A DNA stretch of 64,000 bases, taken from the NCBI RefSeq assembly GCF_002305855.1, contig NZ_CP022163.1, positions 6,811,765 to 6,875,764 of the forward strand, given 5' to 3'. Below the pieces are notes generated by a model. That model searched no databases, was not told the origin of the DNA, and saw nothing but the letters and a program-made list of their open reading frames with translations. Below, piece after piece: positions 9,756-27,437 of the stretch. Within the stretch, counting starts at the first letter, position 1. Every line of letters begins with the position of its first letter. The DNA comes from Melittangium boletus DSM 14713 (GTDB lineage: Bacteria > Myxococcota > Myxococcia > Myxococcales > Myxococcaceae). A program made the translations under genes and the position numbers.

Positions 9756-9787
9756 TCGTGCTCATGCTCCGGTGCGGAGCGGGGCGG

Positions 9788-10240
9788 CTACTTGGCGCTA
9801 CACATCATCATGGGCATGCCGTTGCACATCATCATCATCGGCATCCCCATGGCCATCATGGAGTTCATCGCCTCGCAGCAGTCCTTCATCATCTCCATCT
9901 GCCCGGCGTCCATGGGCATCATCCGACAGATCATCCCCTCCTTACCCATCTCGCACGTCATCCGGCTCATCATGGGCATGCGCATCATCATGGGCATCAT
10001 CATGGGCATACCTCCCATCATGGGGTTCATGCCCATCATCGGCATGCCACCCATCATGGGGTTCATGCCCATCATCGGCATGCCCATCATGCCACCCATC
10101 ATCGGCATCTGATTCATGCCCATCATCATGGGGTTCATGCCCATCATGGGATTCATGCCCATCATCGGCATCGGGTGCATTCCCATCATGGGGTTCATTC
10201 CGGGCTGCATCGGCATGTTCATCTGGGAAACAGGCGTCAT
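9788..10240 (-). CDS. Methionine-rich (about 40% Met) low-complexity protein with a Cys-containing C-terminal tail; possible Cu(I)/metal or oxidant buffer; no signal peptide
   Basis: (M-P/N/G-M-M-G-M) repeats, then C-terminal CEMGKEGMIC...KDCCEAMNSMM...MMMMCNGMPMMMCSAK. About 90% of non-Met third positions are G/C, whereas the mirror His frame uses only CAT. Hairpins flank both ends. Confidence 0.6.
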   Translation of the reverse strand: MTPVSQMNMPMQPGMNPMMGMHPMPMMGMNPMMGMNPMMMGMNQMPMMGGMMGMPMMGMNPMMGGMPMMGMNPMMGGMPMMMPMMMRMPMMSRMTCEMGKEGMICRMMPMDAGQMEMMKDCCEAMNSMMAMGMPMMMMCNGMPMMMCSAK

Positions 10241-10388
10241 GGTCTGATCCTCTCGTGGCGGCGACAGGGGTTGTTACTTCGAGGCCGCACGGTACGGAGA
10301 AGCTTGTTCACAGACAATACGTGCTCGTGTTTTCCTCCAGTGAAACGGATGCCCTGCTCCCGGTGGCGGATGCAGTGTGTCATTTAGC

Positions 10389-10448: not shown

Positions 10449-12071
10449 TCAGCGACACTGGGGCTGCTCGGAGGCCCCGGTGCTCGACGCCACCAGCCGC
10501 AGGAACTCGTCGGGCGGCGGCTCCGAGCCGCGCTCCCAGAGCGTGGCCTCCGCCCAGCACTGCACCCAGGGGGTGCCCCACTCCGCGGGGAGGCTGGCGC
10601 AGGAGGCCCGGCGCGCCGCGCCTCGCACCTGGGCGTCATGCTGCACCGCCGCGAAGACGTGGGGCGCGAGCTGTCCGAGGAAGGCCTCCGAATAGGCATG
10701 AGGGGGAGGGATCACCAGCGGATCCGCCTCCAGGCCCGCGGGCCGGAACCCCACGTGCTCCGCGTCCGCGAACCGCAGCTCTCCCGCCTGCCGCACCGGG
10801 AGCGAGGCGCCCGCGGTGTTCGTCTCGAGCGTGAACTGGAAGGGCGAGCTCCAGTGGTATGTCCGCACGGGGTAGGTGAAGGTGTCGTACACGTCCTCGG
10901 TCAACGTCTCGGGCGTGTCGTCCAGCTCACGGCCCGCCGCGTGACGCTCCCGGGCGCGCAAGTCCCGCTCCTGGGCGAGCTTCTTGGCGTCGTCGCAGGG
11001 AGAGCTCGTGGGCGCGGGCTTCGGGCAGCCGACGCAGCTCGCGTCGTGCGTGTCCTTCGCGTTCTTGCACTCGGACTCCTTGTTCGACAGGGCCTTCTCG
11101 GCCGCGCGCAGGGCGTGTTCGGCGTGGCCCACCCGCTCCCGGGCTTCGTCGTAGCGGCGATTGTGCACCTGGCGGGTTCCGCTCACGTAGTTCACGCTGT
11201 TGATGTCCTCGGACACCGTCTCCACGACGCGCTGGATGAGCGCGTCCACGTGGAGCTGGAGGGGCTCGGGCTGGCCGGGCATCGTTCCGGTCTCCGCGCA
11301 CCGGGCCCAGCGGGGCAGGCCCGAGGCCAGACTCATGCACGGCGAGGCGAGCCCCTGGGCGACGGGCGGCGGAATGCGGCCACCGAGCTCCGCCACGACC
11401 GGAATGGCGCTCTGGGCGAGGAAGCCCTCGCGGGACTGCTGCGCCTGGGCGTTCGTCGTGTCCGCGGGCGCCAGGCACTGCGCCGTGGTCCACAACACGG
11501 CGGCGGCGCCTTCCGTGCCCTGCGCGCGCGCGGTGGTGGCCAGGGTCACGAAGCGCGAGGAGAGCTCGCTCGCGCGCGCGGAGAGGAGATCCTGATAGGC
11601 GGCCACGGGCAGTTGGTGGCTTCGAGACTGGAGGCAGGCGAAGCCCGCCACCGCGGTGCCCACCTGGCCGTTGTTCTTCCACTGGTTGGCGCAGCGCTCG
11701 ATGTGGACCTGGCTGGCCGAGTCGAGCATCGAGTTGACCTCGGTGTGGGCGGGCAGCAGATCCCGGGCGTCGAGCAGGGGCGGCAGGCACCGGTCGAGGT
11801 CGCCAGCGTTACATGCCGGCCGGGCACTCAGGATGGCCTGATCCGTCGCCTTGACGGAGAAGAGGGGAACGCGGCTACAGGCGTCCTCGTCATCGGGCGC
11901 GGCGCGACAGGCGTCGCGGTAACCCCGGGCCGCGGTCAGGAAGTCACCCTTGAGCGCCGCTTCCTTGGCGCGGGCGAAGGCTTCTCGGTAGGCGGTGTTG
12001 CAACCGCTGTTCAACAGCAGGAGCGTGAGGACCGAGGCGAAACGAGGAAGGGATGGAAGAGGGGAACGCAT
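10449..12071 (-). CDS. Hypothetical lipoprotein (540 aa)
   Basis: Signal peptide plus lipobox (LLLLNSGC). The antisense ORF 10377..12215 was rejected. Confidence 0.55.
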   Translation of the reverse strand: MRSPLPSLPRFASVLTLLLLNSGCNTAYREAFARAKEAALKGDFLTAARGYRDACRAAPDDEDACSRVPLFSVKATDQAILSARPACNAGDLDRCLPPLLDARDLLPAHTEVNSMLDSASQVHIERCANQWKNNGQVGTAVAGFACLQSRSHQLPVAAYQDLLSARASELSSRFVTLATTARAQGTEGAAAVLWTTAQCLAPADTTNAQAQQSREGFLAQSAIPVVAELGGRIPPPVAQGLASPCMSLASGLPRWARCAETGTMPGQPEPLQLHVDALIQRVVETVSEDINSVNYVSGTRQVHNRRYDEARERVGHAEHALRAAEKALSNKESECKNAKDTHDASCVGCPKPAPTSSPCDDAKKLAQERDLRARERHAAGRELDDTPETLTEDVYDTFTYPVRTYHWSSPFQFTLETNTAGASLPVRQAGELRFADAEHVGFRPAGLEADPLVIPPPHAYSEAFLGQLAPHVFAAVQHDAQVRGAARRASCASLPAEWGTPWVQCWAEATLWERGSEPPPDEFLRLVASSTGASEQPQCR

Positions 12072-13018: not shown

Positions 13019-13765
13019 GTGAAACGTTGGGAGCTGTTGCTCGTCTTCTGCTTGGGTTGCGCGGGCCCCTCTTCGTCATCTCGTGCACGCGTTGTCGAGA
13101 TTCCCAAGGGTCCCTGGGCGGAAGTACCCGCTGTCGAATCGAGCACTGACGACACCTCCATTCCCATCGGATTGATCCGGGACATGGCCGACGCATTGCT
13201 CAAGCGTCCCGGTGCCAGGGTCTGTGACCCGGTGACGCACCTTCCCATCGTAGGTCTCTCAACGGAGTACTGCTCGACGGTCTACGTCGCTGGCTCCCAG
13301 GATTCCCTTTCCTGGCGGGTGACTGAGCCCGTGATGGGGAGCCATGGGTCGTGTAAGCCCTTCTCGCGCGTGGAAGACGATGACTACCCCGCATCCCAAG
13401 TATGGGTCGTGGGCTATATCCACAATCATCCTTGTGGGAGCCCTCCATCATCGGGGGACCTCGGGACATGGCCCACGGATGCATTCAACCCTTATGTGGC
13501 CATGGCGGAAGTGCGCCTGATTCCCGGCAATCCGATTCCCGCGGTTCACGGGAACGTCGCCGTCGAGATTGCCTCGGCGGTGGTTGCCGAGCGCCCTGAC
13601 GGCACACGAATCTTCCTGCGCTATTTCCCCACGGGTGAGATTCAACAGTGGAGCGATGCGAGGGCTCGGTGGGTCGCTCTGGGGCAATGCTCTCCCCGAG
13701 AGCGCGGCAGCCGATTCAAAACGCCTCGTTGTGAAAATGAACCCCTACGATTGCTGAGTGAGTAG
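13019..13765 (+). CDS. Lipoprotein with a RadC/JAB(MPN)-like HNHP...PS..D metalloprotease motif
   Basis: Lipobox LVFCLGCAG; VWVVGYIHNHPCGSPPSSGDL resembles the RadC-type JAMM motif HNHPSGxxxPSxxD; GTG start. Confidence 0.5.
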   Translation: MKRWELLLVFCLGCAGPSSSSRARVVEIPKGPWAEVPAVESSTDDTSIPIGLIRDMADALLKRPGARVCDPVTHLPIVGLSTEYCSTVYVAGSQDSLSWRVTEPVMGSHGSCKPFSRVEDDDYPASQVWVVGYIHNHPCGSPPSSGDLGTWPTDAFNPYVAMAEVRLIPGNPIPAVHGNVAVEIASAVVAERPDGTRIFLRYFPTGEIQQWSDARARWVALGQCSPRERGSRFKTPRCENEPLRLLSE

Positions 13766-13802
13766 CCATGGATTCCCGGCGCGGAGACACGAAGTGGACA
13801 AC

Positions 13803-14384
13803 ATGAACCCATTCGGAGGGCGCCGTTGCCTGTGGTGGATGCTGGTGGCCCTCTCCTTGGGGAACGGAGGCTGCGCCTGGCTGGGGCTGACCCCCAAGAG
13901 GCACATCGAGTGGCCGGACCCGGCTTCGACTCCCCTTGTCGGTGCGCCCATGGAGGCGGGCGCCGCGATCGCCGCTGCGGCCGCCGTTCGTGAGATGGTG
14001 CGCCAGAACGACGACGCGCGGTTGTTCGAGGGGTGCTCCAGTCCCGAGCAGGGGTTGGATGTCGCCGTTTTCAAGGATCCCAAATCGGGCCTGTACTTCG
14101 TGGTCTTGCATCAACGCTTCGACCGGTGCGGCGGCCCTGTCGGGCGTGTACTCGACTGGTCGTATGAGTACGCGGTGACGGCTCAAGGTGAGGTGGTGGG
14201 CGAGGCACCGCCCTCGGCTTGGGATGAGCCCTCGTCGCCCCTTGCTCCGGACGAACAACTCCCGGCTAGCTCCACTCCGTCGTCTACGTCCGAGGACTCG
14301 ACCTCCGCTGGACCACCGCCCGCGAGTGCTCCGGTGCCGGGTACTTCGGCGCCCGCGCTTGATACGGAGGCGAGCCCTCGCTGA
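13803..14384 (+). CDS. Hypothetical lipoprotein with a Pro/Ser-rich C-terminal tail
   Basis: MNPFGGRRCLWWMLVALSLGNGGC signal and lipobox; the start was chosen at the internal Met of ORF 13758..14384. Confidence 0.45.
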   Translation: MNPFGGRRCLWWMLVALSLGNGGCAWLGLTPKRHIEWPDPASTPLVGAPMEAGAAIAAAAAVREMVRQNDDARLFEGCSSPEQGLDVAVFKDPKSGLYFVVLHQRFDRCGGPVGRVLDWSYEYAVTAQGEVVGEAPPSAWDEPSSPLAPDEQLPASSTPSSTSEDSTSAGPPPASAPVPGTSAPALDTEASPR

Positions 14385-14521: not shown

Positions 14522-17326
14522 CTACGGGTTCGGAGCCGGAGCCACGCCGCGGAAGGCGGAGTTGGCCGGCGCCGTGGCCACGGTGGTCACGGCCGCGGTG
14601 CTCGTTCCATCATCCACGAAGGTGACGAGCTTGTTCTCGTTCCCCTTCAGGGTTGCCACGACGTGCACGGTCGTGCCGTCCACGACGGCGGCCACGCCCA
14701 CGGCGGGACCGGGGTTGGTCAAGGTCGCCTGGCTCCAGTTGCCCGAGCCGTCCTTGGTGAACTTGAACACGCCGCCGCTGTTGCCATCGTCCGCGATGTA
14801 CAGCGTGGCATCGCCCACGAAGAAGAACTGGTAGGGCGACGTGAGCGTCGTGCCGACCGGAAGACCGGACAGCACCGTCGCGGTCTGACCCGAGGCCGTG
14901 GGCAGGCCCGTGCCCACCGCGGAGACGGCCCGGTAGTCACCGCTGCCCGTGCTCAAGTAGAGCTGTCCGCCGAAGACGCTGACCACGCGCGAGTTGTTGG
15001 GATCCTTGAGGACCTGCGTGGACACGCCCGTGGAGCCCGCGGTGACGTAGTGGACGCCTCCACTGGCAGAGGCGCCGTTGCCCGCGACCCAGTAGGCGGA
15101 TCCATCCACCGTGGTGGCCGAACGCACGTTGCTGGTGTTGAAGGCGGCGTCCAACGTCGCGACGACGGAGGCGCTGCCCGCGCTATCGATGCGACCCACC
15201 ACGCGGGGCGTCGCGCTCGAGGTAGTGCCCGCCACGCTGGCCGTACCGGCGGGGGCGCTGTAGCCCGCGAACACCACGTAACGGCTGTCCGCCGACCGGC
15301 TCAGGAATCCCTCGGAGCCAGAGGAACCGGCGATGGTCAGACCCGTGACGGGCGTCGTGGCGGTGCGCGTGCCGGAGACCACGTCGTAGGTATCGATGGT
15401 CACGGCGGCGGCGGCGCCGCTGAGCGCGGCGGCGCCATCACCGACGCGCAGCACGGACACCCGGGTGGGTGATACGACGCAGGTGACCGACACGGTCGTC
15501 ACGTTGGCGGACGCCACCGTCCCGCTGCCATTGGCCACCGTGCAGTTGAGCCCCACGGGCTGCGTCTTCACGGCCACGGCGTAGGCCGCGCCGCTCAACA
15601 GGCCCGTGGTGAAGGTGAAGGTCGTGCTGCCGCCCGCGACGGACAGGTCATTCCCGCCGTTGTTGGTGAGCACCAGCGTCTTGCCGCTCGACAGGCCCGT
15701 CACGGTGCCGCCCACCGTGTACAGGTTGGCGCAGGTCACGGCCACGTTGGTGACATTCGCGCTCAGGTTGGTCCCACTGCCATTGGCCACCGTGCAGTGC
15801 TGGCCCGTGGGCTGCGCGGAGACGGTGACGGTGTAGCCACCGCCCTCGGCCACGGGGGTGGCGAAGGTGAACCCGCCGTCCGCCGTCAGGGTCAACTCGT
15901 CGCCGCCGTTGTTGCGCAGCTTCACGGTGCCGCCGGTGGCGAGTCCGCTCAGGTTGCCGCCCACGGTGTACGTGGTGGCCGAGCACGCCACGATCACGTT
16001 CGTCACGTCGGCGCCGCCCACGGTGCCCGAGCCGTTGGCCACGCTGCACTGCTTGCCCGCGGGGGCCGTCTTCACCGCCACGTCATAGGCCGCGCCCTGA
16101 TCCACCTTCTGGGTGAACTGGAAGGCGCCATTCGCGCTGACGGGCAGTTCTTCCGCGCCGTTGGTCAGCGTCACGGTCTCACCCGTGCCGAGGCCGCTCG
16201 CCGTGCCGCCCACGAAGAACTGATTGGTCACACAGGTGACCTTCACCGTCACATCCGAGGTGCCGATGGGCGCGGACGCGGTCTGCTCCGAGGTGCACGT
16301 CTGGGTCTCGGGCTGGGTGCCCACGGTGACGAAGTAGCTTCCGCCCTCGGTCACGCGGTTGTTGAAGGCCTTGGTCTCGTTCGTCGTGAAGGTGAGCGAA
16401 TCCGAGTCGTTGTTCTTGACGACCACCGAGCCCACCAGACCGCTCACCGTCACGTTCACGAGGTACGCGCGGGTCGTGCACGTCACGGCGATGTTGGTGA
16501 TGTTCGCGCTGCCCACCGTGCCCGTGCCCCGGGAGATGGTGCAGTTCTGGCTCTCCGGAGGCGTCTTCACCTTCACGTCATAGGGGGTGCCCGCCTCGAC
16601 TCCCGTCGGGAAGGCGAACGAGGTGTTGCCAGCCGAGCCCGTGCCCGTGAGGGTCACCGTCTGCTCCTGGGCCCCACTGCCAGTGCTCAGCACCAGGGTG
16701 CCGTTGAGTCCGCTGACGAATCCGCCCACCGTGAACTTCGAGGTGTCGCAGTTGACGGTGATGCTGGTCACGTCGGCACTGCCCACGGTGCCCTCGCCGC
16801 CGGACACGGTGCAGCGCTGCGCGGGGCCGGTGGGCTGGGTGGCCACGGTGACGGCATATGCCGCGCCGCTCTCCACGGGGGTGGCGAACTGGAAGGCGCC
16901 ATTGGCCGTCACGTTCAGCGTCTCCGCCCCGTTCCTGAGCTTCAGGCCCGTGCCCACGAGCCCCGTCACGGTGCCGCCCACCTTGAAGGCCGGAACACCA
17001 CACGTCACGGTGACGTCCGTGACATTGGCGGTGTAGATGAAGCCCACGCCATGGGTCACGATACATTCCTGGGTGGGTTCGGCGGGGTGGGTCGCTACCT
17101 TGACCACGTAGGTGCTGCCCGTGGATGCCTTGCGCTCGAAGGTGAAGGCGCCGTCACTGGAGATCGCCAGGGTCTCGCCGCCATACTCCAACACCAGTCC
17201 GCTGCCCTCGAGGCCCGTCACGGTGCCGCCCACCGTGTACTCCTGCGGAGCCGGTTCTGGGTCGGAGCAGCGCGCGAGCGCCAGTGGCAGAAGAAGCGTC
17301 AACACCAGTCGGAATGACAATCGCAT
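14522..17326 (-). CDS. Large secreted or cell-surface protein (935 aa) with seven tandem ~84-aa beta-sandwich repeats (GG-TVTGL...NG...ANGAF-F...QP..C.V..G.GTV....VT.V.V.C) and a ~330-aa C-terminal beta-rich domain
   Basis: Signal peptide MRLSFRLVLTLLLPLALARCS. The repeat periodicity is visible in both protein and DNA. Each repeat has two conserved Cys. The antisense ORF 15797..17317 was rejected. Confidence 0.65.
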   Translation of the reverse strand: MRLSFRLVLTLLLPLALARCSDPEPAPQEYTVGGTVTGLEGSGLVLEYGGETLAISSDGAFTFERKASTGSTYVVKVATHPAEPTQECIVTHGVGFIYTANVTDVTVTCGVPAFKVGGTVTGLVGTGLKLRNGAETLNVTANGAFQFATPVESGAAYAVTVATQPTGPAQRCTVSGGEGTVGSADVTSITVNCDTSKFTVGGFVSGLNGTLVLSTGSGAQEQTVTLTGTGSAGNTSFAFPTGVEAGTPYDVKVKTPPESQNCTISRGTGTVGSANITNIAVTCTTRAYLVNVTVSGLVGSVVVKNNDSDSLTFTTNETKAFNNRVTEGGSYFVTVGTQPETQTCTSEQTASAPIGTSDVTVKVTCVTNQFFVGGTASGLGTGETVTLTNGAEELPVSANGAFQFTQKVDQGAAYDVAVKTAPAGKQCSVANGSGTVGGADVTNVIVACSATTYTVGGNLSGLATGGTVKLRNNGGDELTLTADGGFTFATPVAEGGGYTVTVSAQPTGQHCTVANGSGTNLSANVTNVAVTCANLYTVGGTVTGLSSGKTLVLTNNGGNDLSVAGGSTTFTFTTGLLSGAAYAVAVKTQPVGLNCTVANGSGTVASANVTTVSVTCVVSPTRVSVLRVGDGAAALSGAAAAVTIDTYDVVSGTRTATTPVTGLTIAGSSGSEGFLSRSADSRYVVFAGYSAPAGTASVAGTTSSATPRVVGRIDSAGSASVVATLDAAFNTSNVRSATTVDGSAYWVAGNGASASGGVHYVTAGSTGVSTQVLKDPNNSRVVSVFGGQLYLSTGSGDYRAVSAVGTGLPTASGQTATVLSGLPVGTTLTSPYQFFFVGDATLYIADDGNSGGVFKFTKDGSGNWSQATLTNPGPAVGVAAVVDGTTVHVVATLKGNENKLVTFVDDGTSTAAVTTVATAPANSAFRGVAPAPNP

Positions 17327-17499
17327 GGGCAGGCCCTGGGTGTGGCGCACCGGCGGACGGCCCCCGAAGGCGAGGCCGCCATCAGCACGTGCTCCCGGCA
17401 TGGGAGTCCTTGCCCGTCTACCGTGCCCGCCGGGGGTCGTGCACGGAGGTTCTGTGACAGTCTGGCTTCATTTTTACAGGAGAAGCCGTATTCCCAGAA

Positions 17500-17533
17500 C
17501 AGACGGACCGCTCTATCCCGTCTGGCCTTTTTT
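17500..17533 (+). terminator. Plus-orientation intrinsic-terminator-like hairpin (CAGACGG-11nt-CCGTCTG then GCC TTTTTT) in an AT-rich intergenic island
   Basis: Stem plus T6 tract seen in sequence, but no plus-strand gene lies upstream, so the function is unclear. Confidence 0.35.
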
Positions 17534-17561
17534 CCATGGCTGCCTTTGGTCCGGCTCGCGA

Positions 17562-18161
17562 TCAGGGTGTTTCGGTGGGGGTCTCCACCTGCTGGTATTG
17601 GAACGAGAGCCGCGCCGGGGTGCCCGCGCTGTCGTAATACGAGAGCATCCGCAGCTTGAAGTAGCGCGCCTGGCTGCTGCGGACCACGTACAGCAGGGAC
17701 TCGCGCGGCAGGAGCTGGTGCTTCACGAGATCGTAGCCGTACCAGCCGCCCTGGACGCCGTTGAAGACCGTCTCCGAGGCGTCCTGTTGATAGCCCTCGG
17801 CGGGAGCGGTCGTGAGGGCATCCCAATCATTGTTCTGGAGCACCGCCACGCGCACCTCGCCCGTGGGGTTGCCGCCGCCTCCATTCGACGTGACGGTGAA
17901 GCGTTGGAACGCGAGATCCCACCCATTGCTGTCCAGGGCCTCGTCGGTCTTCATCTCCCGGCCCTCGTCGAGGTCGAAGTAGACCGTGCCCGACTTGCTC
18001 GTCGCGTCGACGAGGACGATGGCGCTGCCATCCTCTCGGGGCGTCACCTCGACGAGCGGCCCGGCGGAGATCTGCCCATCGAAGGGGTAGTCCTCGCGCA
18101 GGTCCGGCGCGCAGCCCGCCATCAGGAGCGCCAGCCAGGGCACCATGTCGTGTCGCCGCAT
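17562..18161 (-). CDS. HmuY-like lipoprotein (accessory of a TonB-dependent receptor)
   Basis: Lipobox WLALLMAGCAP; about 199 aa; immediately downstream of the receptor with a TGATG stop/start overlap. Confidence 0.5.
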   Translation of the reverse strand: MRRHDMVPWLALLMAGCAPDLREDYPFDGQISAGPLVEVTPREDGSAIVLVDATSKSGTVYFDLDEGREMKTDEALDSNGWDLAFQRFTVTSNGGGGNPTGEVRVAVLQNNDWDALTTAPAEGYQQDASETVFNGVQGGWYGYDLVKHQLLPRESLLYVVRSSQARYFKLRMLSYYDSAGTPARLSFQYQQVETPTETP

Positions 18162-20125
18162 CAGTAGTCCCATTGGATGCCGCCCAGGACGCCTCGCGGC
18201 GGGCGGGGGTTGAACTGTTGATCGCCCGCGTTGAGCAGGTTGTACCCGTTGACGAAGAGCTCGATTCCCGATGAGCGGAACCGGTAGGTCACCTGCGCCT
18301 CGAGGTCCACGTACGCGGGCGCCCCGGTCGGGGTGTCCTCCCCATAGCCAATCACATTGGCCATGCCACCCCCCACGCCCAGGAAGTACGTCCGGCAGCT
18401 CACCCAGGAGCCACGCACCACGGCCTCGAGGTTCAGCGGGCGGTAGCGCGTGGTGAGCTGCGCGTTGACGCGATGCCGGGAGCGGCCCTCCAGCGGGCGG
18501 TCGCGGGTGAGATCCCTCGCGTCCAGGAACGTGTACGCCAGATCCAGGTACGTCGAGCGCACGGGCAGCTTGACGCGGCCATTGAGCTCGATGCCCTGGG
18601 TGTAGGCGCGCGCCACGTTCTCGTAATTGAAGGTCACCGGATCGTCGGGATTCGGCACCCCGCCGGCGGTGACGTTGATGAGGTCGCGCAGCCGGGTATG
18701 GAAGGCGCTCGCGGAGAAGAGCCAGCCGGAGAGGGGTGGCCGCCAGTCCACGCCGACGTTCACCGCCGCGGAGTGCTCGGCCGTGAGGTCGGGGTTGCCC
18801 GACACCACGTAGCCGATGCCCGTGTTGGTGAAGCGCAGGTACAGCTCCTGGAAGGACGGCGGACGGAAGCCCAGCCCCGCGGACGCGCGCACCGTGAGGG
18901 CCGGGCTCGGGTCCAGCTTGATCGCGAGCCGGGGCGAGGGCGCGCCACCAAATTGGGAATCCAGGTCGAAGCGCAGGCCCGGCGCCACCTTCAAGCGGAG
19001 GCCTTCGCCGTCCGTGCCCGGGAGCACGTCCCACTCGTCCTGGAGGAACACGCCGCCGCGAATCCGGGACACGGGGCTGCGCTCCAACCGCGCGGAGTTG
19101 AGCCGTTCGCCGAGCACTTCCACGCCTCCGGTGAGCGCATGGGCGCCGAGGCGATGGTCTCCTTGCACCAGGCCCTCGTAGAGGCGGGTGAAGTTCTGGG
19201 AGTAGTCATCGAGCGCCCGGGAGCCGCGCTGATCCTGCAGGAGTTGTTCCCGGAACAGCCCGAAGTGTCCCCGGACGAGCAGGGAGGGGCCATCCGCGAG
19301 CTGATGCCGGCTCCCCAGCGAGACGTCGAACTGCTCCTGCCGCTGGCGCCGGTCCAGCACGGCGCCCGAGGGGTTGAGATCCACGGCGTTCTCGTCGCGC
19401 CGGGCGTATCCCCCGCGCAGCCAGACGCGCGTCCGTTCATCCGGCGCGTAGGCGAGTGACAGGTCTCCATCGAACCGCTGGAGTGCCGCGCCGCTCGTGG
19501 CCGCGTCCTCGGGTTGCCAGTCATAGGCATCGCGCCGGCGGAAGCCACCGCCCACCCTCAGCTCGAACGGGCCCTGCTTCGTGCCGGCGTTCGCGCGCGC
19601 GTCCCCCTCCAGCAGGGTTCCGAACATGCCCCGGCCTCCCAGTTCCAGGGGACGTTGGACGCGCCGCGTGATGAGGTTCACCACGCCGCCCATCGCATCC
19701 GCGCCGTAGAGCGCCGCGGCGGGACCCTTGACGATCTCCACCCGCTCCACTTCCCGCAGGCTGAAGCGTCCCAGGTCGAGGGTCGTGCCCACCCGGCCAC
19801 TCACCCGCTCGCCGTCGACGAGCACGAGCACGTACTCGGGGTCCAATCCCTGCAGGCGCAGCCCCACGCCCCGGAAGGTGTAGACGAGCTCCACGCCCGG
19901 TTGCTGCTGGAGCAACTGTCCCAGGTCCCTCACGCCGAGTGCGTCGATCTGTTCCCGGGTGATGACCTCGGTGGCCACCACCACGTCCTCCAGCTTGCGC
20001 TCCGCGCGCGAGGCCGTGACGACCGTCTGCTGGCGGCGGTTGGGCTCCTCGGGTTCGTTCGGTCCCGGAGCTGGGGCGGGAGGGGACTGGCTTGTCAGGA
20101 ACGCGGCCACCAGGGGGAGGATCAC
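18161..20125 (-). CDS. TonB-dependent outer-membrane receptor (haem/siderophore type); start uncertain
   Basis: Plug and barrel motifs ([15 protein letters not shown]..., [30 protein letters not shown]) and a C-terminal ...GGIQWDY with terminal aromatic. An in-frame GTG at 20125 was preferred over 20239, which would overlap the divergent gene. Confidence 0.7.
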
Positions 20126-20237: not shown

Positions 20238-21359
20238 ATGACCGATACGTCCCAAGGTTTCGACCCGAAGAAGTTTGAAGCACTGGTGGCTCAGGTCCGA
20301 CAGGAGGCGCAGCGCGCCGGACCCTCCAAGCCCGCGGTGGAACTCCGCCCCTTGGATCCCTCCGACATCGAGGCCGTGCCCCAGGCGGGCACGCCCCTCT
20401 ACGAAGAGTGTTACCGGTTGGGTTCGGAGGCCCTGCGGCGCGGAGAGGTCTCCATGCTCATCCTGGTGGGGGGCGCGGGGACGCGCTTCGGTGGCGCGGT
20501 CAAGGCGCTGGCGCCCCTGCTCGACGATCGCACCTTCCTGGAACTGCGGTTGGAGAACATCCGAGGAGTCGCCCAGCGTCATGGGGCCTCGGTCCCCGTG
20601 GTGCTGATGACCTCCCCGCTCACGCACGAGGGCATCGAGGCCTACGTGAAGCCTCGGGGTCTGGGCCAGGACATCTTGCTGTTCCAGCAGCGCATGCTGC
20701 CGAGGCTCACGCCGAACTGGGAGCTGTTCCGCGACGCTGACGGGGAGTTGTCCTTCGCACCCTCCGGACACGGAGACTTCATCCGCGCCCTGCGCGAGAG
20801 CGGCACGGGAGCGCTCCTGCGCCAGCGCGGTGTGCGCCACGTGTTCTTCTCCAACGTGGACAACATGGGCGCGACGCTGGACCCCATCATCATCGGCCTT
20901 CATCTCAAGCTCGGCCGGGAGATGACGATCGAGGTGACGCCGCGCGCGAACCAGAATGGCACGCTCGACACGGGCGCGGCGCCGGTGCGCATCGGCGACC
21001 ATCCCCAGCTCGTCGAGCACGTGGACTCCAAGCAGCACCGGCTCATCAACACCAACAACCTCGCCTTCACGCTGGCGGCCCTGCTCGACAAGGACATCCA
21101 GCTGCCCTTCCAGGTGGCGAAGAAGAAGGTGGACGGGCAGGAGGTCATCCAGCTCGAGCAGATCACGAGCGAGGCCAGCGCGCTCGTGGGTCCCGACGGC
21201 CGCGCCCTGCTGTCGGTGGCTTTCATCGAGGTGCCTCGGGACAACCCCGTCACCTCGCGCTTCGAGCCCGTGAAGGCGCCCGAGGATCTGTCCTACGTCG
21301 TTCCCCGGTTGAGGCAGCGGCTGCAGGCGGCCGCCCAGGAAGGAAAGGGCTCCAAGTGA
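20238..21359 (+). CDS. UDPGP-family nucleotide-sugar pyrophosphorylase (eukaryote-type UTP-sugar-1-phosphate uridylyltransferase)
   Basis: [13 protein letters not shown] and APSGHGDF motifs; 373 aa. Confidence 0.7.
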
Positions 21360-22435
21360 ACGAGCTGGAAACGAAGCTGGCGCGCGTGCGCGAGGCCCTG
21401 GTGAAGCACGGTCTGGGCGCGGTTCGCTTGCGCGGCGTGGACTGGTTCGGCTGGGCCACCTGCGGCGGCTCGAACGTCGTCCTGCTCACGACCGATGTGG
21501 GCGTGGCCGAGGTGCTCATCACCCGGGAGGATGCCTGGGTGCTCACGGACGCCATCGAGGCGGCCCGGCTGGAGGAGGAGGAAGTGCCTCCGGGGTTGAA
21601 GATCTGGTCCGGCCCCTGGGCGGACAAGGCCCAGCGCGAGTCCTTCGTGGAGACGCACCGGAACGGGGCCCGGGTGGCGTCCGATCGGCCCGTCCTGGGT
21701 GAACTCCCCCTGCCCGTCGAACTGATCCATGCCCGCTGGTCCCCGCTGCCCCAGGAGTTGGAGCGCTACCGGGTGCTCGGACGGGACGCGGCCGAGGCGA
21801 TGACGGAGGTGTTGCTCGCGGCCCGGCCGGAGTGGACGGGCTGGGAACTGGCGGGCGCTGGCGCCGAGGCGTTGTGGGCCCGGGGCATCCACCCCGCGCT
21901 GACGCTGGTGGGGGAAGAGCGGCGTCTGCCCTTGCACCGCCACGCCACCGCGAGCCACGAGAAGCTGGGCGAGCGCGCCATGCTCGTCTTCTGCGGCCGC
22001 CGGCATGGGCTGTTCGCCAACCTCACCCGCTTCGTCTACTTCCGCCAACCCACCCCCACCGAGCGGCACCTGGTGGCGGACGTGGCCCGTGTCGAGGCCG
22101 CGGCCTTCGACGCCTCGCGTCCGGGCGAGACGCTGGGGGCCGTGTACGCGGCCATCGTGAAGGCCTACGCGGCGCTGGGCCACAAGGGCGCCGAGGCCTA
22201 CCATCACCAGGGCGGCTCGTGTGGCTACCTGTCCCGCGACGTCGTCGCGGGCCCGGACTCCTCCGAGGTGCTCCAGCCGCACAACGCCGTGGCATGGAAC
22301 CCGTCCCTGCCGGGTGCGAAGATCGAGGACACCGTCATCGTGGGAGAGCAGGGCGTGGAGATCCTCACGGTGGATCCGCGCTGGCCCACCGTGAGCATCG
22401 AGGGCCGCGCGCGGCCCGACCTCCTGGTGCGCTAG
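21356..22435 (+). CDS. Creatinase/prolidase-fold (M24-like) protein
   Basis: N-terminal creatinase_N-like region and C-terminal pita-bread-like segment (HHQGGSCGY...[15 protein letters not shown]). GTGA overlap with the upstream gene. Confidence 0.5.
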
Positions 22436-23562
22436 GCGCCGGTGGGTTGTGGCAGGAGGATCGCCGGGCGCTGGCCGGAACGGGCCGCGTAGCGCTCGGA
22501 GATCCTCTGGGCCACGGCGGTGCCGGTGCCGTCACGCGCCAGCATCACGACGGAGCCACCGAAGCCTCCGCCCGTGAGGCGCGCGCCATAGACGTCCGAG
22601 TCCTCGCGGGCCAGGTCCACGAGCAGATCGATCTCGGGGACGGACACCTCGTAGTCGAGGCGCTGCGAGTCATGCGAGGCGTAGAAGAGCTGGCCGAGCC
22701 GTTTCAAGTCGCCCGCGCGCAGGGCCTCCACCGTGGCGAGCACGCGCGCGTTCTCCGTCACGACGTGCCGCGTGCGCCGGCCCAGGGGATCGGGCAGACG
22801 CTCGGTCCGGGCAAGCTCCGCCTCGGGCAGGTCGCGCAACTGGGGAACGCCGAGGAGGGCCGCTGCGCGCTCACACTCCGCGCGGCGCACCCGGTAATCA
22901 CCCGCCGAGTGGTTGTGCGCGACGCCCGAGTTGATGATGACGACGTCCACGCCTGGGGGGAGGGGAACGCGCTCGAAGTTCATGTGTCGCGTGTCCAGGA
23001 AGAGCGCGACGCCGAGCCCCGCGATGCTGGCGGCCATGGGGTCCATCACGCCCACGGGAGCGCCCACGAAGTCCACCTCCACGCGCTGGCCGAGCAGCGC
23101 GAGCTGAACGTCGTCCAGGGGAAGGGAGAACGCGGCACGCAGCGCGCGCAGCAGGCCCACGTCCAGGGACGCACTCGAGGACAGCCCGCTGCCGAGCGGC
23201 ACCTCGGAGGAGATGCGCAGCTCCACCCCCGACAGCGTGTGACCCTCGCGCTGGAGCACGTGGGTGACACCCTGCACGTAGTCGAGCCAGCCCTTGCCGG
23301 CGGCTTCGGCGCCCAGCTCGAACTCGAGGATTTCGCCGGCCTGGCTCTTGTTGGCGCTGAAGGCCCGCACGCGCCGGTCGTCCCGCCGCCGCAACTCGAC
23401 GTGGGTCTGCTGGGGAATGGCCATGGGCAGCACGAAGCCGCCGTTGTAGTCGGTGTGCTCGCCAATGAGGTTCACCCGCCCGGGGGCATGCACGGCGACT
23501 TGGGCGGGGTGACCGAACAACTCTTGGAAGGATGGATTCACGTCAGGGCTCATCGATCTCAT
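22432..23562 (-). CDS. galK: Galactokinase (GHMP kinase)
   Basis: Galactokinase signature PGRVNLIGEHTDYNGG and GHMP motif SGLSSSASL...GGGFGGSVV. ATGA overlap with the upstream GH43 gene. Confidence 0.85.
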   Translation of the reverse strand: MRSMSPDVNPSFQELFGHPAQVAVHAPGRVNLIGEHTDYNGGFVLPMAIPQQTHVELRRRDDRRVRAFSANKSQAGEILEFELGAEAAGKGWLDYVQGVTHVLQREGHTLSGVELRISSEVPLGSGLSSSASLDVGLLRALRAAFSLPLDDVQLALLGQRVEVDFVGAPVGVMDPMAASIAGLGVALFLDTRHMNFERVPLPPGVDVVIINSGVAHNHSAGDYRVRRAECERAAALLGVPQLRDLPEAELARTERLPDPLGRRTRHVVTENARVLATVEALRAGDLKRLGQLFYASHDSQRLDYEVSVPEIDLLVDLAREDSDVYGARLTGGGFGGSVVMLARDGTGTAVAQRISERYAARSGQRPAILLPQPTGA

Positions 23563-25193
23563 TCAGGGGTGATGCGCAGCGAATCGAACCGGGCGGAGGC
23601 ACCCAGGGCCCCACCCACGGTGAGCCCCACGCGCACGCCGCGATCCCATAGAGGCAGGAAGTCACCGTTCTGCTCTTCTCCCACGTCCGTCCAGGTGGTG
23701 CCATCCGCGCTCACCGCGAAGTGGAACAGGTGGCCGTCCCTCGCGGTCATGCGCAGGTGGTACGTGTTGCCCGGTGCCGTGGGCGCGTCGGCGGTGGCGA
23801 CCGTCTCCTGCTTGCCACCCTGGCGGCGCCAGACCTCCACCCGGCCCTCGCGCAGCCCCACGCCGATGGCGTTCTCCGGGTCTCCCACCGCCGCGAGTCC
23901 CGTCTGGGCTCCCCCGGTGAGTCCGGAGACATCCACGCGGGTCTCGGCCCGATAGGCGCCGCTCTGGGTGGAGCGGGCGAGGATCGCCCCCACGGGGTTG
24001 TCCGCCCGGGCCTCGTTGGGCGCCAGCGTCAACTGCTCCTCGGCGAGGGTGACGGTGGGCTTCTGGCCATGAGGCCACTGCCAGCCGACCGCGAGCGTGG
24101 GGGTGGTGAACTCATCCGCGAAGGCGGCGGGCCTGGTCAGCACCTTGCCGCCTGGACCCCGGCGGGAGTTGAGGGTGGGCCAGCCGTCCTCGCCCCAGGT
24201 GATGACGTCCAGCATGCCCTGGCGCCCGACGTACACGGAGTCCGTGGCGCGGTAGGCGTGATAGAGCAGGTAGTCCCGTCCCTGGGCATCCGTCACCACG
24301 CTGCCGTGGCCGGGGCACTTGAAGGACTCGTTGTTCCTCATGATGGGGTTGAGCGGGTTCTTCTCCCAGCCCCCGAGCAGCGTGCGCGAGCGGGCCACGC
24401 CCATCCCGTAGTTGCAATCGCGGCCGCAGCACCCGCTGCCCGCGTAGAACAGATAGAACCAGCCGTTGCGCTTGAGGACGTAGGGCCCCTCGACGAGCTG
24501 TCCCTCCCAGGGCACGTCGTTGATGATGAGCTGGGTCTTCTCCCCGGTGAGCTTGTACCCGGTGCCGTCCTCGGACAGGGGTTGAGCCCAGATGGGAGTG
24601 GGCAGCCCCCGGCTGTTGCCGTCCATCTTCCATAAGAGGAAGAGCTTGTCGTTCTCGTCGCGGATGAGCGCGCCGTCGATGGAGCCGAGCTCCTCGCAGA
24701 CCAGCGGCCCATGGTCGGTGTACGGCCCCTGGACCTGGGCGGCGGTGGCCACGGCCACGCAGAGCGGGCCCCCCTTCTTCTTGGCCGTGTAGAGGACGAA
24801 GTAGCGGCCCCGGTCGACCGCCAGCTCCGGCGCCCAGTAATTGGCCTCGGACCAGGCGGGCGGCTCCTGGAAGACGGAGCCCACCTGCTCCCAGTGGAGC
24901 AGATCCGGCGAGCGCAGCAGCGGGTAGTGCGGCGCCCACTCGGAGGAGGTCGTCGAGGCCCAGTACTCCGTGCCCACCTTGATGACGGACGGGTCGGCGA
25001 AGTCCCCGGAGAGCACCGGGTTGATCACCTCCAGCGGGGGCACGGAAGGGGGCGGTTCGGGAGGTACTGGCTCCGGGGTGGGTTCCACCGGCGTGGGAGG
25101 CGGGTTGTTCTGGGTACAGCCCGGCGCGCAGAGCGCCGCGAGCGTGACCCATGAAAGCAATGCCGCGGAACGGAGTACACCGCGTGAGCGCAT
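23559..25193 (-). CDS. Lipoprotein glycoside hydrolase family 43 (beta-xylosidase/arabinofuranosidase-like) with a C-terminal beta-sandwich domain
   Basis: Lipobox LAALCAPGC; GH43 motifs DPSVIKVGTEYW, GPYVLKRNGWFYLFY. Confidence 0.8.
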   Translation of the reverse strand: MRSRGVLRSAALLSWVTLAALCAPGCTQNNPPPTPVEPTPEPVPPEPPPSVPPLEVINPVLSGDFADPSVIKVGTEYWASTTSSEWAPHYPLLRSPDLLHWEQVGSVFQEPPAWSEANYWAPELAVDRGRYFVLYTAKKKGGPLCVAVATAAQVQGPYTDHGPLVCEELGSIDGALIRDENDKLFLLWKMDGNSRGLPTPIWAQPLSEDGTGYKLTGEKTQLIINDVPWEGQLVEGPYVLKRNGWFYLFYAGSGCCGRDCNYGMGVARSRTLLGGWEKNPLNPIMRNNESFKCPGHGSVVTDAQGRDYLLYHAYRATDSVYVGRQGMLDVITWGEDGWPTLNSRRGPGGKVLTRPAAFADEFTTPTLAVGWQWPHGQKPTVTLAEEQLTLAPNEARADNPVGAILARSTQSGAYRAETRVDVSGLTGGAQTGLAAVGDPENAIGVGLREGRVEVWRRQGGKQETVATADAPTAPGNTYHLRMTARDGHLFHFAVSADGTTWTDVGEEQNGDFLPLWDRGVRVGLTVGGALGASARFDSLRITPE

Positions 25194-25525
25194 GAAGATG
25201 TCCTTGAAGGGGAGCGGCAGCCTAGGGCGGCGCGAATTGGCTGGTCAACGAAGGATGCCTTCACGCAACCACTCGCAGTGGGAGTTGCTGGAACGTGTCA
25301 GCCTCTTCACACTTCACCTGGAGTCAGGACGCCAACCCGTGCAATCATTGACGCAATGCATTGTCATGGAATTCGAGGAGAACGTGCAACGGCCCTGAAT
25401 GGCCCTTGGGAACACATGCAAGGCTGTCAAGGCTGTGCTTGACACCTCGCAGTCGCGTGTATCAGATGCGCTGCTCCTTGTTTGGCGCCCGTGGTAACGC
25501 CGCCCGAGAGTCATGAGTTAGATCT

Positions 25526-25546
25526 TCAATTTGTTCAATTTGTCGG
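25526..25546. promoter_or_regulatory. AT-rich direct-repeat motif TCAATTTGT-TCAATTTGTCGG just upstream of the GH43 start codon, in a divergent intergenic region
   Basis: A near-identical 18-mer (AATTTGTTNNRTTTGTCG, 16/18 positions) recurs at 33405..33423 upstream of the second sugar ABC operon. Confidence 0.35.
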
Positions 25547-25562
25547 AAAGGGAGCAGTGCTG

Positions 25563-27437
25563 ATGCGGAGAGGTCCGTCTTCGTCTTGGGGTTGGCGTCC
25601 CCTGCGTGCGCTGTTCCCCCTGCTTGGATTGCTGTCCCTCTCGGCCTGTCAGGGCAAGCCCTCCGAGACCCTTCCTCCCGTGACGGAGCCCGAGCCGCCG
25701 ACTCCCGCGCCGACTCCCGTGGAGGGGACCTTCACCAACCCCATGAAGATCTCCATTCCTGGCGGGAGCCTCGTGGAGAACTGCCCGGATCCAACGATCA
25801 TCCAGGGGCAGGGGCGCGACACCGCCTGGTATTTATTGTGCACGGCGGACCCGCTGAACGACGAGGACCGGGATGTCTCGCGCGAGTACAAGCAGCGCTT
25901 GATTCCCATCCTCAAGTCCGAGGATCTCGTCGAATGGAATTACATCGGGGATGCGCTGAGCACACGGCCCTCGTGGGCAAAGGCTGACTCCGATATCTGG
26001 GCTCCCGAGATCGCCTACTTCAACGACAAATATCATCTCTATTTCACGGTCGTGGAGACGAAGGCGGGCGGCAGCGCCATTGGCGTCGCCACCAGCGACA
26101 GCCCGGCCGGGCCCTGGGTCATCGCGGAGCGGCCCGCCGTGGAGCCCCACGAAGCGCCCTGCTGTGGAAACTCCAAGCGGTGGACGTATGATCCGGAAGT
26201 CCTCATCACCGCCAACGGTGACAAGTATATCTATTACGGCAGCTATTACGGTGGCGTGTCGGTGCGCGCGCTCTCGGAGGATGGACTCACCTCGGATCCG
26301 TACACCCAGGTGGAGGTCACCGTCGCCAATCGTTACGAGGCGCCCAGCATCGTCCAGCACGACGGGTACTATTACCTGCTGGTGTCCTCGGCGAACTGCT
26401 GCAACGGCCCCCTGACGGGCTATGGCGTCTTCGCCGGCCGTTCCAAGAGTCCTTACGGACCCTTCGTGGATCGCGAGGGCGTGCGTCTCACCCTCAACCG
26501 CGTGGGCGGCACGCCCGTGCTGGGCGCCAATGGCAACCGGTGGGTGGGAACGGGTCACAATTCCGTGTTCACCGACCCGGGTGGCCAGGACTGGATTGTC
26601 TATCACGCCATCGATCGATCCGAGCCCTACCTCGCGCCCGCCCCCAATGGCGAATTGCCTCCCAAGCGGCAGGCGCTGATGGACGCGCTGGACTGGGTGG
26701 AGGGCTGGCCCGTGGTGCGCGGAGGCCAGGGCCCCTCGGACAGCCCACAGCCGGCTCCCGCGGCTCGCGCCAACGAGAAGAGCCGCTACCTGCCCACCTA
26801 CGTGGAGCACGACGCTCCGGGTGCGCTCCTGGAATCGGACGAGTTCGAGGGCACCTCGCTGGGCTCTCCCTGGTCCTGGACGCGGGAGTCGAAGGCTGTC
26901 CATGGCGTGGGTGAGGGGGTCTTGCGCTTCGACACCCAGGCCGCGGATCTGCACGAGAACGACAACAGTGCCTCCATCCTCTGGAGGCCCGCGCCCGTGG
27001 GCAACTTCCTCGTCGAGACGAAGATGTCCCTGAACCTGCCGCCCGTGAGCTGCTGTCACAACTACGTACAGGCCGGGCTCCTCGTCCACACGGACGATGA
27101 CAACTACGTGCGGCTGACCCACGTGTCGAGCTGGGAGACGCGGCAGATCGCCTTCTCCAAGGAGCAGGGCCCCGTGGTGCCCGCGGGCCATCCGCGCTTT
27201 GGCGAGACGTTCGGCGGCCCCGCGGACGAGACCGTCTGGCTGCGGATCGCCCGGCGCGTTCAGGGCGCCGAGGAGCTGTACACGGCGTATTCGAGCCGGG
27301 ATGGCGCCACGTGGAGCCGGACCGCGACCTGGACCCACTCGCTGGGCGCGAGCGCCCGTCTGGGTCTGGTGTCGATGGGGGGCGCGGGCTTCACCGCCAC
27401 CTTCGATTACGTGCGTGTTCATGAGTTGAGGCCGTAA
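25563..27437 (+). CDS. Lipoprotein GH43-family glycoside hydrolase (arabinanase/xylosidase-like) with a C-terminal LamG/beta-sandwich domain
   Basis: Lipobox LLGLLSLSAC; RBS GGAAAGGGAG. GH43 five-bladed-propeller motifs (DPTII..., WAPEIAYFNDKYHLYFT, YYYLLVSS). Confidence 0.8.
   Translation: MRRGPSSSWGWRPLRALFPLLGLLSLSACQGKPSETLPPVTEPEPPTPAPTPVEGTFTNPMKISIPGGSLVENCPDPTIIQGQGRDTAWYLLCTADPLNDEDRDVSREYKQRLIPILKSEDLVEWNYIGDALSTRPSWAKADSDIWAPEIAYFNDKYHLYFTVVETKAGGSAIGVATSDSPAGPWVIAERPAVEPHEAPCCGNSKRWTYDPEVLITANGDKYIYYGSYYGGVSVRALSEDGLTSDPYTQVEVTVANRYEAPSIVQHDGYYYLLVSSANCCNGPLTGYGVFAGRSKSPYGPFVDREGVRLTLNRVGGTPVLGANGNRWVGTGHNSVFTDPGGQDWIVYHAIDRSEPYLAPAPNGELPPKRQALMDALDWVEGWPVVRGGQGPSDSPQPAPAARANEKSRYLPTYVEHDAPGALLESDEFEGTSLGSPWSWTRESKAVHGVGEGVLRFDTQAADLHENDNSASILWRPAPVGNFLVETKMSLNLPPVSCCHNYVQAGLLVHTDDDNYVRLTHVSSWETRQIAFSKEQGPVVPAGHPRFGETFGGPADETVWLRIARRVQGAEELYTAYSSRDGATWSRTATWTHSLGASARLGLVSMGGAGFTATFDYVRVHELRP

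Follow-up and report, generated by a model that had tools for sequence, protein, structure and literature searches.

The subject of this report is a gene in a 64,000-nucleotide stretch of the genome of Melittangium boletus DSM 14713 (the whole stretch is called the window below; its G+C content is about 68%), an organism that we take to be a myxobacterium of the family Archangiaceae. The gene encodes a secretory protein with seven tandem repeats of about 84 residues, each with two cysteines, followed by a predicted beta-propeller. We consider it reasonably probable that the product is a modular, fibrillar-adhesin-like protein that acts alone, probably lipid-anchored in the outer membrane, with the repeats as a stalk and the propeller as a binding head, and that the nearby genes for a TonB-dependent receptor and an HmuY-family lipoprotein form a separate cassette.

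The tandem repeats had been proposed in an initial annotation of the sequence, and they were confirmed at the protein level. Cutting the protein after every second cysteine gave seven units of 82-90 residues, which could be aligned to repeat 1 with 34-47% identity and shared 14 invariant columns. In agreement with the alignment, autocorrelation of the protein sequence had a sharp peak at lag 84 (25% identity, with no other lag above about 15%). The two cysteines were 21 positions apart in all seven pairs, and the second cysteine was always the final residue of its unit. The period had also been described as visible in the DNA, and this was only weakly the case: ungapped repeat families with 249-252-nt spacing and 63-76% identity were present, but Tandem Repeats Finder did not report an array of about 252 nt, and pairwise DNA identity between units was 45-67%. 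The low identity and the missing array indicate that the M. boletus repeats are old and diverged. A hint that the units retain positional identity is that repeat 4 is atypical, and atypical in the same way, in at least one orthologue too.

In order to characterize the repeat fold, units 6 and 7 were modelled together with AlphaFold, using 55 two-unit segments from homologues as input. The model (mean predicted local distance difference test score, pLDDT, 97.4) is a CnaB/prealbumin-like beta-sandwich, as anticipated by the earlier suggestion of a transthyretin- or carboxypeptidase-regulatory-like fold. The best structural neighbours of the two-repeat model were stalk or shaft CnaB domains of Gram-positive pilins and Cna B-repeats. 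The cysteine pair, already noted as distinctive, is a family-wide hallmark of the repeat: exactly two cysteines were found in 1260 of 1264 repeat units from 120 homologues, with a spacing of 21 in 1068 units and of 20 in 153. We infer one disulfide per repeat, which would connect the sixth strand to the last residue of the domain and staple the last strand to its neighbour. The isopeptide Lys-Asp/Asn pair and the catalytic acid were not conserved among the repeats, in which the invariant or near-invariant columns contain only Gly, Leu, Phe, Tyr, Val, Pro, Thr and Cys.

Curated family models hardly cover the repeat. The repeat protein had no Pfam match to Cna_B, SdrD_B or CarboxypepD_reg at E <= 0.01, and an NCBIfam search returned no match for the repeat. 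The sole Pfam model touching it was DUF4369 (PF14289), which aligned to the first ~55 residues (E 3.8e-05, 24.6 bits), and its summed scores rise with repeat number among homologues. DUF4369 does not define the M. boletus repeat family, since the score falls short of the gathering score (25 bits) and none of the aligned stretches was significant alone. A PDB sequence search yielded marginal monobody/FN3 matches (best E 0.003), which were discarded. A literature search on DUF4369, HmuY in Myxococcus and CnaB-like lipoprotein stalks found no description of the M. boletus protein or of its repeat.

The repeat is not confined to M. boletus. A full-length search found more than 5271 repeat-bearing proteins among 8000 scored candidates. 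According to a profile of the seven M. boletus units, the top 120 homologues contain 7-19 contiguous units, and at least 40 unrelated C-terminal tails follow their arrays. Heads that could be annotated are the SUEL D-galactoside/L-rhamnose lectin (18 proteins), a Kelch propeller, a mannanase-type galactose-binding-like domain and a lactonase-type propeller. Within the M. boletus orthologue group, 7, 8 or 9 units precede the same propeller. In an Archangium violaceum protein (P0121, L091 9001-10512), signal peptide and propeller are as in M. boletus, but a (TDAGTGGE)n low-complexity linker with one repeat takes the place of the array, and the chromosomal locus is unrelated to that of M. boletus. 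The variable copy number, the variable tails and the exchange in P0121 argue for the array as a spacer of adjustable length and for the C-terminal domain as its cargo.

For the C-terminal region, a beta domain of about 330 residues had been proposed. It is indeed all-beta, but comprises 318 residues. AlphaFold, with 66 homologues as input, predicted a six-bladed propeller (pLDDT 95.9) with YWTD/NHL/Kelch-like structural neighbours. Residues 617-934 had no Pfam match even at E 0.1, enzyme families included, and among the 66 members of the propeller family, Pfam gave one marginal Kelch_6 match and one marginal PD40 match. NCBIfam likewise provided no valid family for the head. The family can be recognized by the motifs RVGDG in the N-terminal strand and FRGV at the C-terminus, and several Arg, Glu and Asp residues are near-invariant across it. 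In domain numbering, the near-invariant positions are R11, E56, R92, R119, R164, Y227, W248, D289 and R310. A profile search against 1.84 billion cluster representatives retrieved 7109 proteins at E <= 1e-3, of which 3796 reached E <= 1e-30; some of the proteins contain as many as 14 copies. A genome scan with an alignment of 10 closer sequences placed the propeller in Myxococcota, Planctomycetota, Chloroflexota, Bacteroidota, Verrucomicrobiota, Acidobacteriota, Deinococcota, Cyanobacteria, Actinomycetota and Proteobacteria.

A typical propeller-family member has 330-540 residues and combines a signal peptide with a surface-sorting tag (PEP-CTERM in 21 of the 66 members, a type IX secretion system (T9SS) tail in 6, and also VPDSG-CTERM and dockerin). 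In larger proteins the propeller is accompanied by Big_9, cadherin-like, DUF11/CARDB or putative adhesive domains. The signal peptides, the sorting tags and the adhesin-type partner domains all point to an extracytoplasmic, surface-tethered module.

The propeller family also contains giant proteins (P0339, P0343 and P0354; 4253-7506 residues) with 7-14 propeller copies, and other members are joined with Dictyostelium-type repeats, Sushi and EGF domains. There are thus hints of very large surface proteins, and possibly of eukaryotic members, in this family.

The reading frame proposed for the repeat protein is real, with the correction that its 935 codons are 934 amino acids and a stop codon. 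The product is identical (100%) to the last 934 residues of a 959-residue GenBank entry, which has the generic name 'beta strand repeat-containing protein [Melittangium boletus]' and no other. The GenBank start is an upstream ATG at 17401, with AAGGA five bases 5' of it. No clear Shine-Dalgarno sequence precedes the ATG at 17326, which agrees with the start in most orthologue records. As most of these records (P0004, P0008, P0011, P0014, P0018 and P0021) begin at the MRLSF-type methionine (MRLSFRLV...), the 934-residue form is preferred.

The signal peptide noted in the initial annotation is present, with a non-canonical lipobox (LARC) at its end. Fourteen of the 15 cysteines of the protein belong to the seven pairs, and the remaining one, Cys20, is located at the end of the signal peptide. 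Its position is invariant in all orthologues. Two of them have a canonical lipobox there (FAAC in P0014, LAAC in P0021), and LVRC, LSRC and LVHC occur in others. Most of the 120 repeat-array homologues have a canonical lipobox directly ahead of the first unit, often with a Gly/Ser- or Pro-rich tether. As Cys20 is invariant, has canonical surroundings in two orthologues and lacks a partner cysteine, it is a probable lipidation site, and lipidation is the best reading of the motif. We further infer outer-membrane sorting and surface exposure of the repeat protein.

Taken together, these features suggest the following architecture. The protein would be exported by the Sec pathway, as its signal peptide implies, then lipidated at Cys20 and thereby tethered to a membrane by its N-terminus. 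The seven CnaB-like domains, whose fold is predicted with high confidence, would undergo oxidative folding, each locked by one disulfide as the near-universal cysteine conservation suggests, and together they would form a semi-rigid stalk of perhaps a few tens of nanometres. The six-bladed propeller, also predicted with high confidence, would be held off the membrane at the distal end as a ligand-binding head. Glycans or proteins on prey, matrix or neighbouring cells would be the most likely class of ligand, since sister stalks carry lectin heads and by analogy to YWTD propellers. The upstream receptor and HmuY protein would constitute a separate two-gene uptake cassette. The adhesin half of the earlier 'adhesin- or S-layer-like' proposal agrees with this layout of anchor, stalk and head. 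An S-layer role was rejected, as no SLH or other S-layer anchoring or self-assembly domain was found among the Pfam and NCBIfam matches.

It is unlikely that the repeat protein is instead a periplasmic spacer or envelope-structural lipoprotein, with a stalk that spans the periplasm and a propeller that binds peptidoglycan or an envelope protein in a TolB-like manner. The lipoprotein anchor and the disulfides would be compatible with the periplasm, and seven domains roughly correspond to its width (a rough estimate, not a computed length). However, a copy number of 7-19, with one repeat and a disordered linker in P0121, is unlike a distance ruler. Moreover, proteins with a related head have extracellular sorting signals (PEP-CTERM, T9SS, dockerin), sister stalks have lectin heads, and the likeness to TolB is a generic similarity of six-bladed propellers (11-12% identity).

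Surface lipoproteins serve TonB-dependent receptors in Bacteroidota. By analogy, the repeat protein could be an accessory ligand-capture component of the neighbouring system, its propeller fishing for haem, a haemoprotein or another nutrient and handing it over to HmuY and the receptor. A shared capture or uptake system had in fact been proposed in the initial annotation. The identification of the two neighbours, encoded on the same strand as the repeat gene, was confirmed by Pfam. The shared function was not supported by our data, and we regard it as improbable. The repeat gene directly adjoins the pair, on the same strand and head-to-tail, in the window, in Archangium primigenium (L001, 76% identity) and in a metagenomic relative (L002, 67%). 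The three genes lie within a few kb of each other in all seven Archangiaceae loci seen, and both HmuY and the repeat protein are predicted lipoproteins. Nevertheless, the stop codon of the receptor gene and the start codon of the HmuY gene overlap by one base, also in L001, L089 and L090, so that these two genes form an operonic, translationally coupled pair, whereas a gap of 235 bp precedes the repeat gene. For the receptor, a start near 20125 is favoured because orthologues have 650-654 residues.

Comparison of loci also argues against a common system. In relatives with 51-61% identity (L003, L004, L005), TPR and GNAT genes on the opposite strand separate HmuY from the repeat gene, and in one of them a histidine kinase gene lies between receptor and HmuY; the spacing is the same in L007. 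The Cystobacter fuscus locus is syntenic (GH43, galactokinase, UDPGP/M24, receptor, HmuY, GNAT, TraC-like, HTH-cupin, SUI1, pseudouridine synthase, kinase), but GNAT directly follows HmuY there and the repeat gene is absent. In Vitiosangium and two more distant lineages, the receptor-HmuY pair has no repeat or propeller gene within 9 kb. In the reverse comparison, neither a relative of the M. boletus receptor nor one of HmuY was found at 79 of the 80 propeller loci of other taxa (phmmer, E < 1e-4, up to 10 kb of stored flank per side). Among 86 loci, the recurrent propeller neighbours were WD40 proteins, histidine kinases, SDR proteins, ABC transporters and response regulators, which were rejected as partners because they are generic large families, and no partner gene emerged. 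Neither an E. coli-type Fur box nor a riboswitch was found around the three genes, which lends no support to joint uptake, and consensus promoters, terminators and other Rfam elements were likewise not detected in the gap or around these genes; all of these nulls are uninformative on regulation.

Within the flanks searched, homologues outside the Archangiaceae thus do not, apart from one of the 80 loci, co-localize with relatives of this receptor or of HmuY. Within the family, the neighbourhood is best explained as regional synteny around a variable insertion point and not as a three-gene system, in view of the intervening genes, the absence from C. fuscus, the pairs found alone, the propeller loci without the pair and the location of P0121 elsewhere. 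The position of the repeat gene beside the uptake pair looks like a local accident and not like a sign of shared function.

We see an equally small chance that the propeller is a stalk-displayed enzyme (a lactonase, a phytase-like or an SGL-type hydrolase) and not a binding module: the repeat array of the sister protein P0097 is followed by a Pfam Lactonase propeller, and the near-invariant Arg, Glu and Asp residues fit this idea, but the M. boletus domain matched no Pfam enzyme family at the permissive threshold given above, and the partner domains in the propeller family are of adhesin and anchor types.

Several observations weigh against our preferred reading of a lone, lipid-anchored adhesin. 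Compared with the lipobox consensus [LVI][ASTVI][GAS]C, the arginine at position -1 of Cys20 is unusual and non-canonical, and cleavage by signal peptidase I at Ala-Leu-Ala just ahead of Cys20 is possible. The propeller matches no established adhesive domain family in Pfam, and for the disulfides the evidence is cysteine conservation. The phmmer screen of neighbours was run with one query sequence, so that receptors of very divergent sequence could have escaped it. Finally, the repeat gene is at most ~4 kb away from the receptor-HmuY pair in each of the seven Archangiaceae loci, and a lineage-specific functional link is therefore conceivable, albeit doubtful.

Table 1. Features of the repeat-protein gene and of the adjacent receptor-HmuY pair (positions refer to the window)
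Feature	Position	Strand	Remarks
Repeat-protein open reading frame	14522-17326	-	934 aa + stop codon
Signal peptide MRLSFRLVLTLLLPLALARC	17267..17326	-	terminal Cys20 is the only unpaired Cys; non-canonical lipobox LARC
Repeat 1, aa 27-109	17000..17248	-	Cys88/Cys109
Repeat 2, aa 110-193	16748..16999	-	Cys172/Cys193
Repeat 3, aa 194-283	16478..16747	-	Cys262/Cys283; 7-residue insertion
Repeat 4, aa 284-365	16232..16477	-	Cys344/Cys365; most divergent unit
Repeat 5, aa 366-448	15983..16231	-	Cys427/Cys448
Repeat 6, aa 449-532	15731..15982	-	Cys511/Cys532; CnaB/prealbumin-like beta-sandwich (model)
Repeat 7, aa 533-616	15479..15730	-	Cys595/Cys616; modelled jointly with repeat 6
C-terminal head, aa 617-934	14525..15478	-	318 aa, all-beta, predicted six-bladed beta-propeller; large family without Pfam model
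Intergenic gap, HmuY stop to repeat-gene start	17327..17561	-	235 bp, room for a promoter
HmuY-family lipoprotein, 199 aa	17562..18161	-	PF14064, E 2.4e-16; ATG overlaps receptor stop by 1 nt
TonB-dependent receptor, Plug + beta-barrel	18161..20125	-	Pfam; reading frame extends to 20239

Fibrillar adhesins have been defined by Monzon and Bateman as proteins with tandem stalk domains, an adhesive domain distal to the anchor, and a cell anchor (PMC8286594). The M. boletus protein resembles them in its seven tandem ~84-residue repeats with a fold typical of stalk domains, in its single differing domain distal to the putative anchor, in its predicted secreted or surface context, and in the rapid shuffling of heads among relatives. 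It differs in its predicted N-terminal lipid anchor (the anchor models quoted in PMC8286594 are of other types, and the word 'lipoprotein' is absent from that paper), in a head outside the known adhesive families, and in its length, which is short for the class. The repeats share the predicted CnaB/prealbumin-like sandwich with the CnaB domains of PitA, Spy0128/T-antigens, SpaA, BcpA and Cna B1B2, but identity to these pilin and MSCRAMM domains is only 7-25% and there is no Pfam Cna_B match. The M. boletus repeats also lack the isopeptide Lys/Asp/Glu triad, in place of which the Cys-Cys pair would join the last two strands, and they occur in a diderm host behind a lipobox and not with an LPXTG anchor. 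The head has the six-bladed fold (model) of YWTD (LDL-receptor class B) and NHL propellers (nidogen, LRP4/6, LDLR, TRIM2), but only 7-12% identity to them and no match to Pfam Ldl_recept_b, NHL or Kelch at E 0.1.

The receptor-HmuY pair resembles hmuYR of Porphyromonas gingivalis in that an HmuY-family lipoprotein is coupled with a TonB-dependent receptor (HmuR in P. gingivalis). The order in M. boletus is receptor, then HmuY, and the repeat protein does not belong to the conserved content of such loci. P. gingivalis HmuY binds haem through His134 and His166, and HmuY homologues in myxobacteria have already been noted (PMC2671838). Among 113 HmuY-like homologues (the named ones are myxobacterial), one histidine (His148) is invariant and Met172 is near-invariant (89%), unlike the His134/His166 pair. 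Haem binding by the myxobacterial subfamily, possibly via His/Met, is therefore plausible. The receptor scored similarly against the NCBIfam models for B12, hemin and siderophore receptors, in all cases far below the cut-offs.

A stalked adhesin-like surface protein is as such of a known kind. What appears uncatalogued is the combination of a lipobox anchor, a putatively disulfide-stapled CnaB-like unit and a propeller, the latter two without a curated family. We tentatively propose, with somewhat less confidence than we place in the architecture of the M. boletus protein itself, that the Cys-stapled ~84-residue CnaB-like repeat defines a large unnamed class of diderm lipoproteins, in which lipid-anchored stalks of 7-19 units present dozens of interchangeable heads (lectins, propellers, Cys-rich modules) and the disulfide acts as a mechanical and proteolytic clamp like the isopeptide bonds of Gram-positive pilins and adhesins. 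Covalent intradomain staples are known to stabilize stalks of the fibrillar-adhesin type (PMC12617251). If the proposal is correct, the M. boletus protein would be one member of this class, with a head from an equally unnamed propeller family of ~7000 sequence clusters.

The understanding of TonB-dependent uptake is not changed by these findings; they are of use for annotation and for the study of protein families. Two abundant extracytoplasmic modules lack a curated family, the stalk repeat (more than 5000 proteins) and the propeller (~7100 cluster representatives in at least ten phyla). With the logic of anchor, stalk and head, thousands of 'beta strand repeat-containing' or hypothetical proteins would become readable as lipid-anchored display scaffolds, and the design catalogue of fibrillar adhesins would gain lipoprotein anchors and disulfide staples. 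The myxobacterial stalk proteins are candidates for contact with prey, matrix or kin.

Some other features of the surroundings were recorded. Two small open reading frames (13019-13765, +, 248 residues, and 13758-14384, +, 208 residues) with lipoprotein-like N-termini converge on the repeat gene; their products have no match in Pfam or NCBIfam. At the corresponding position, A. primigenium (L001) has genes of 196 and 184 residues, and none are called in L002 or C. fuscus. This spot beside the repeat gene appears to be variable. A predicted lipoprotein of 540 residues (10449-12071, -) belongs to no Pfam family and matched the NCBIfam model of TraC, an accessory lipoprotein of outer-membrane exchange, with E 3.5e-11 and 42.5 bits, far under the cut-off of 500. 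Synteny of this TraC-like gene is kept in Archangium and Cystobacter (539-549 residues).

Further away, a 150-residue frame exceptionally rich in Met, Pro, Gly and Asn (9788-10240, -) has MNPMMGM-type repeats and a Cys-containing C-terminus, and a His-rich frame lies on the strand opposite to it (9758-10387). The Met-rich frame is probably a real gene, since genes of 160-161 residues are called at the same position and on the same strand in L001 and L002. Its product may be a Cu(I)- or other metal-binding protein, or a low-complexity secreted protein. On the other side, a sugar-utilisation neighbourhood (21356-27437) encodes an M24 peptidase, a galactokinase, two GH43-like secreted glycosidases and a UDP-sugar pyrophosphorylase. 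Archangium and Cystobacter share this conserved neighbourhood, whose genes appear unrelated to the repeat gene.

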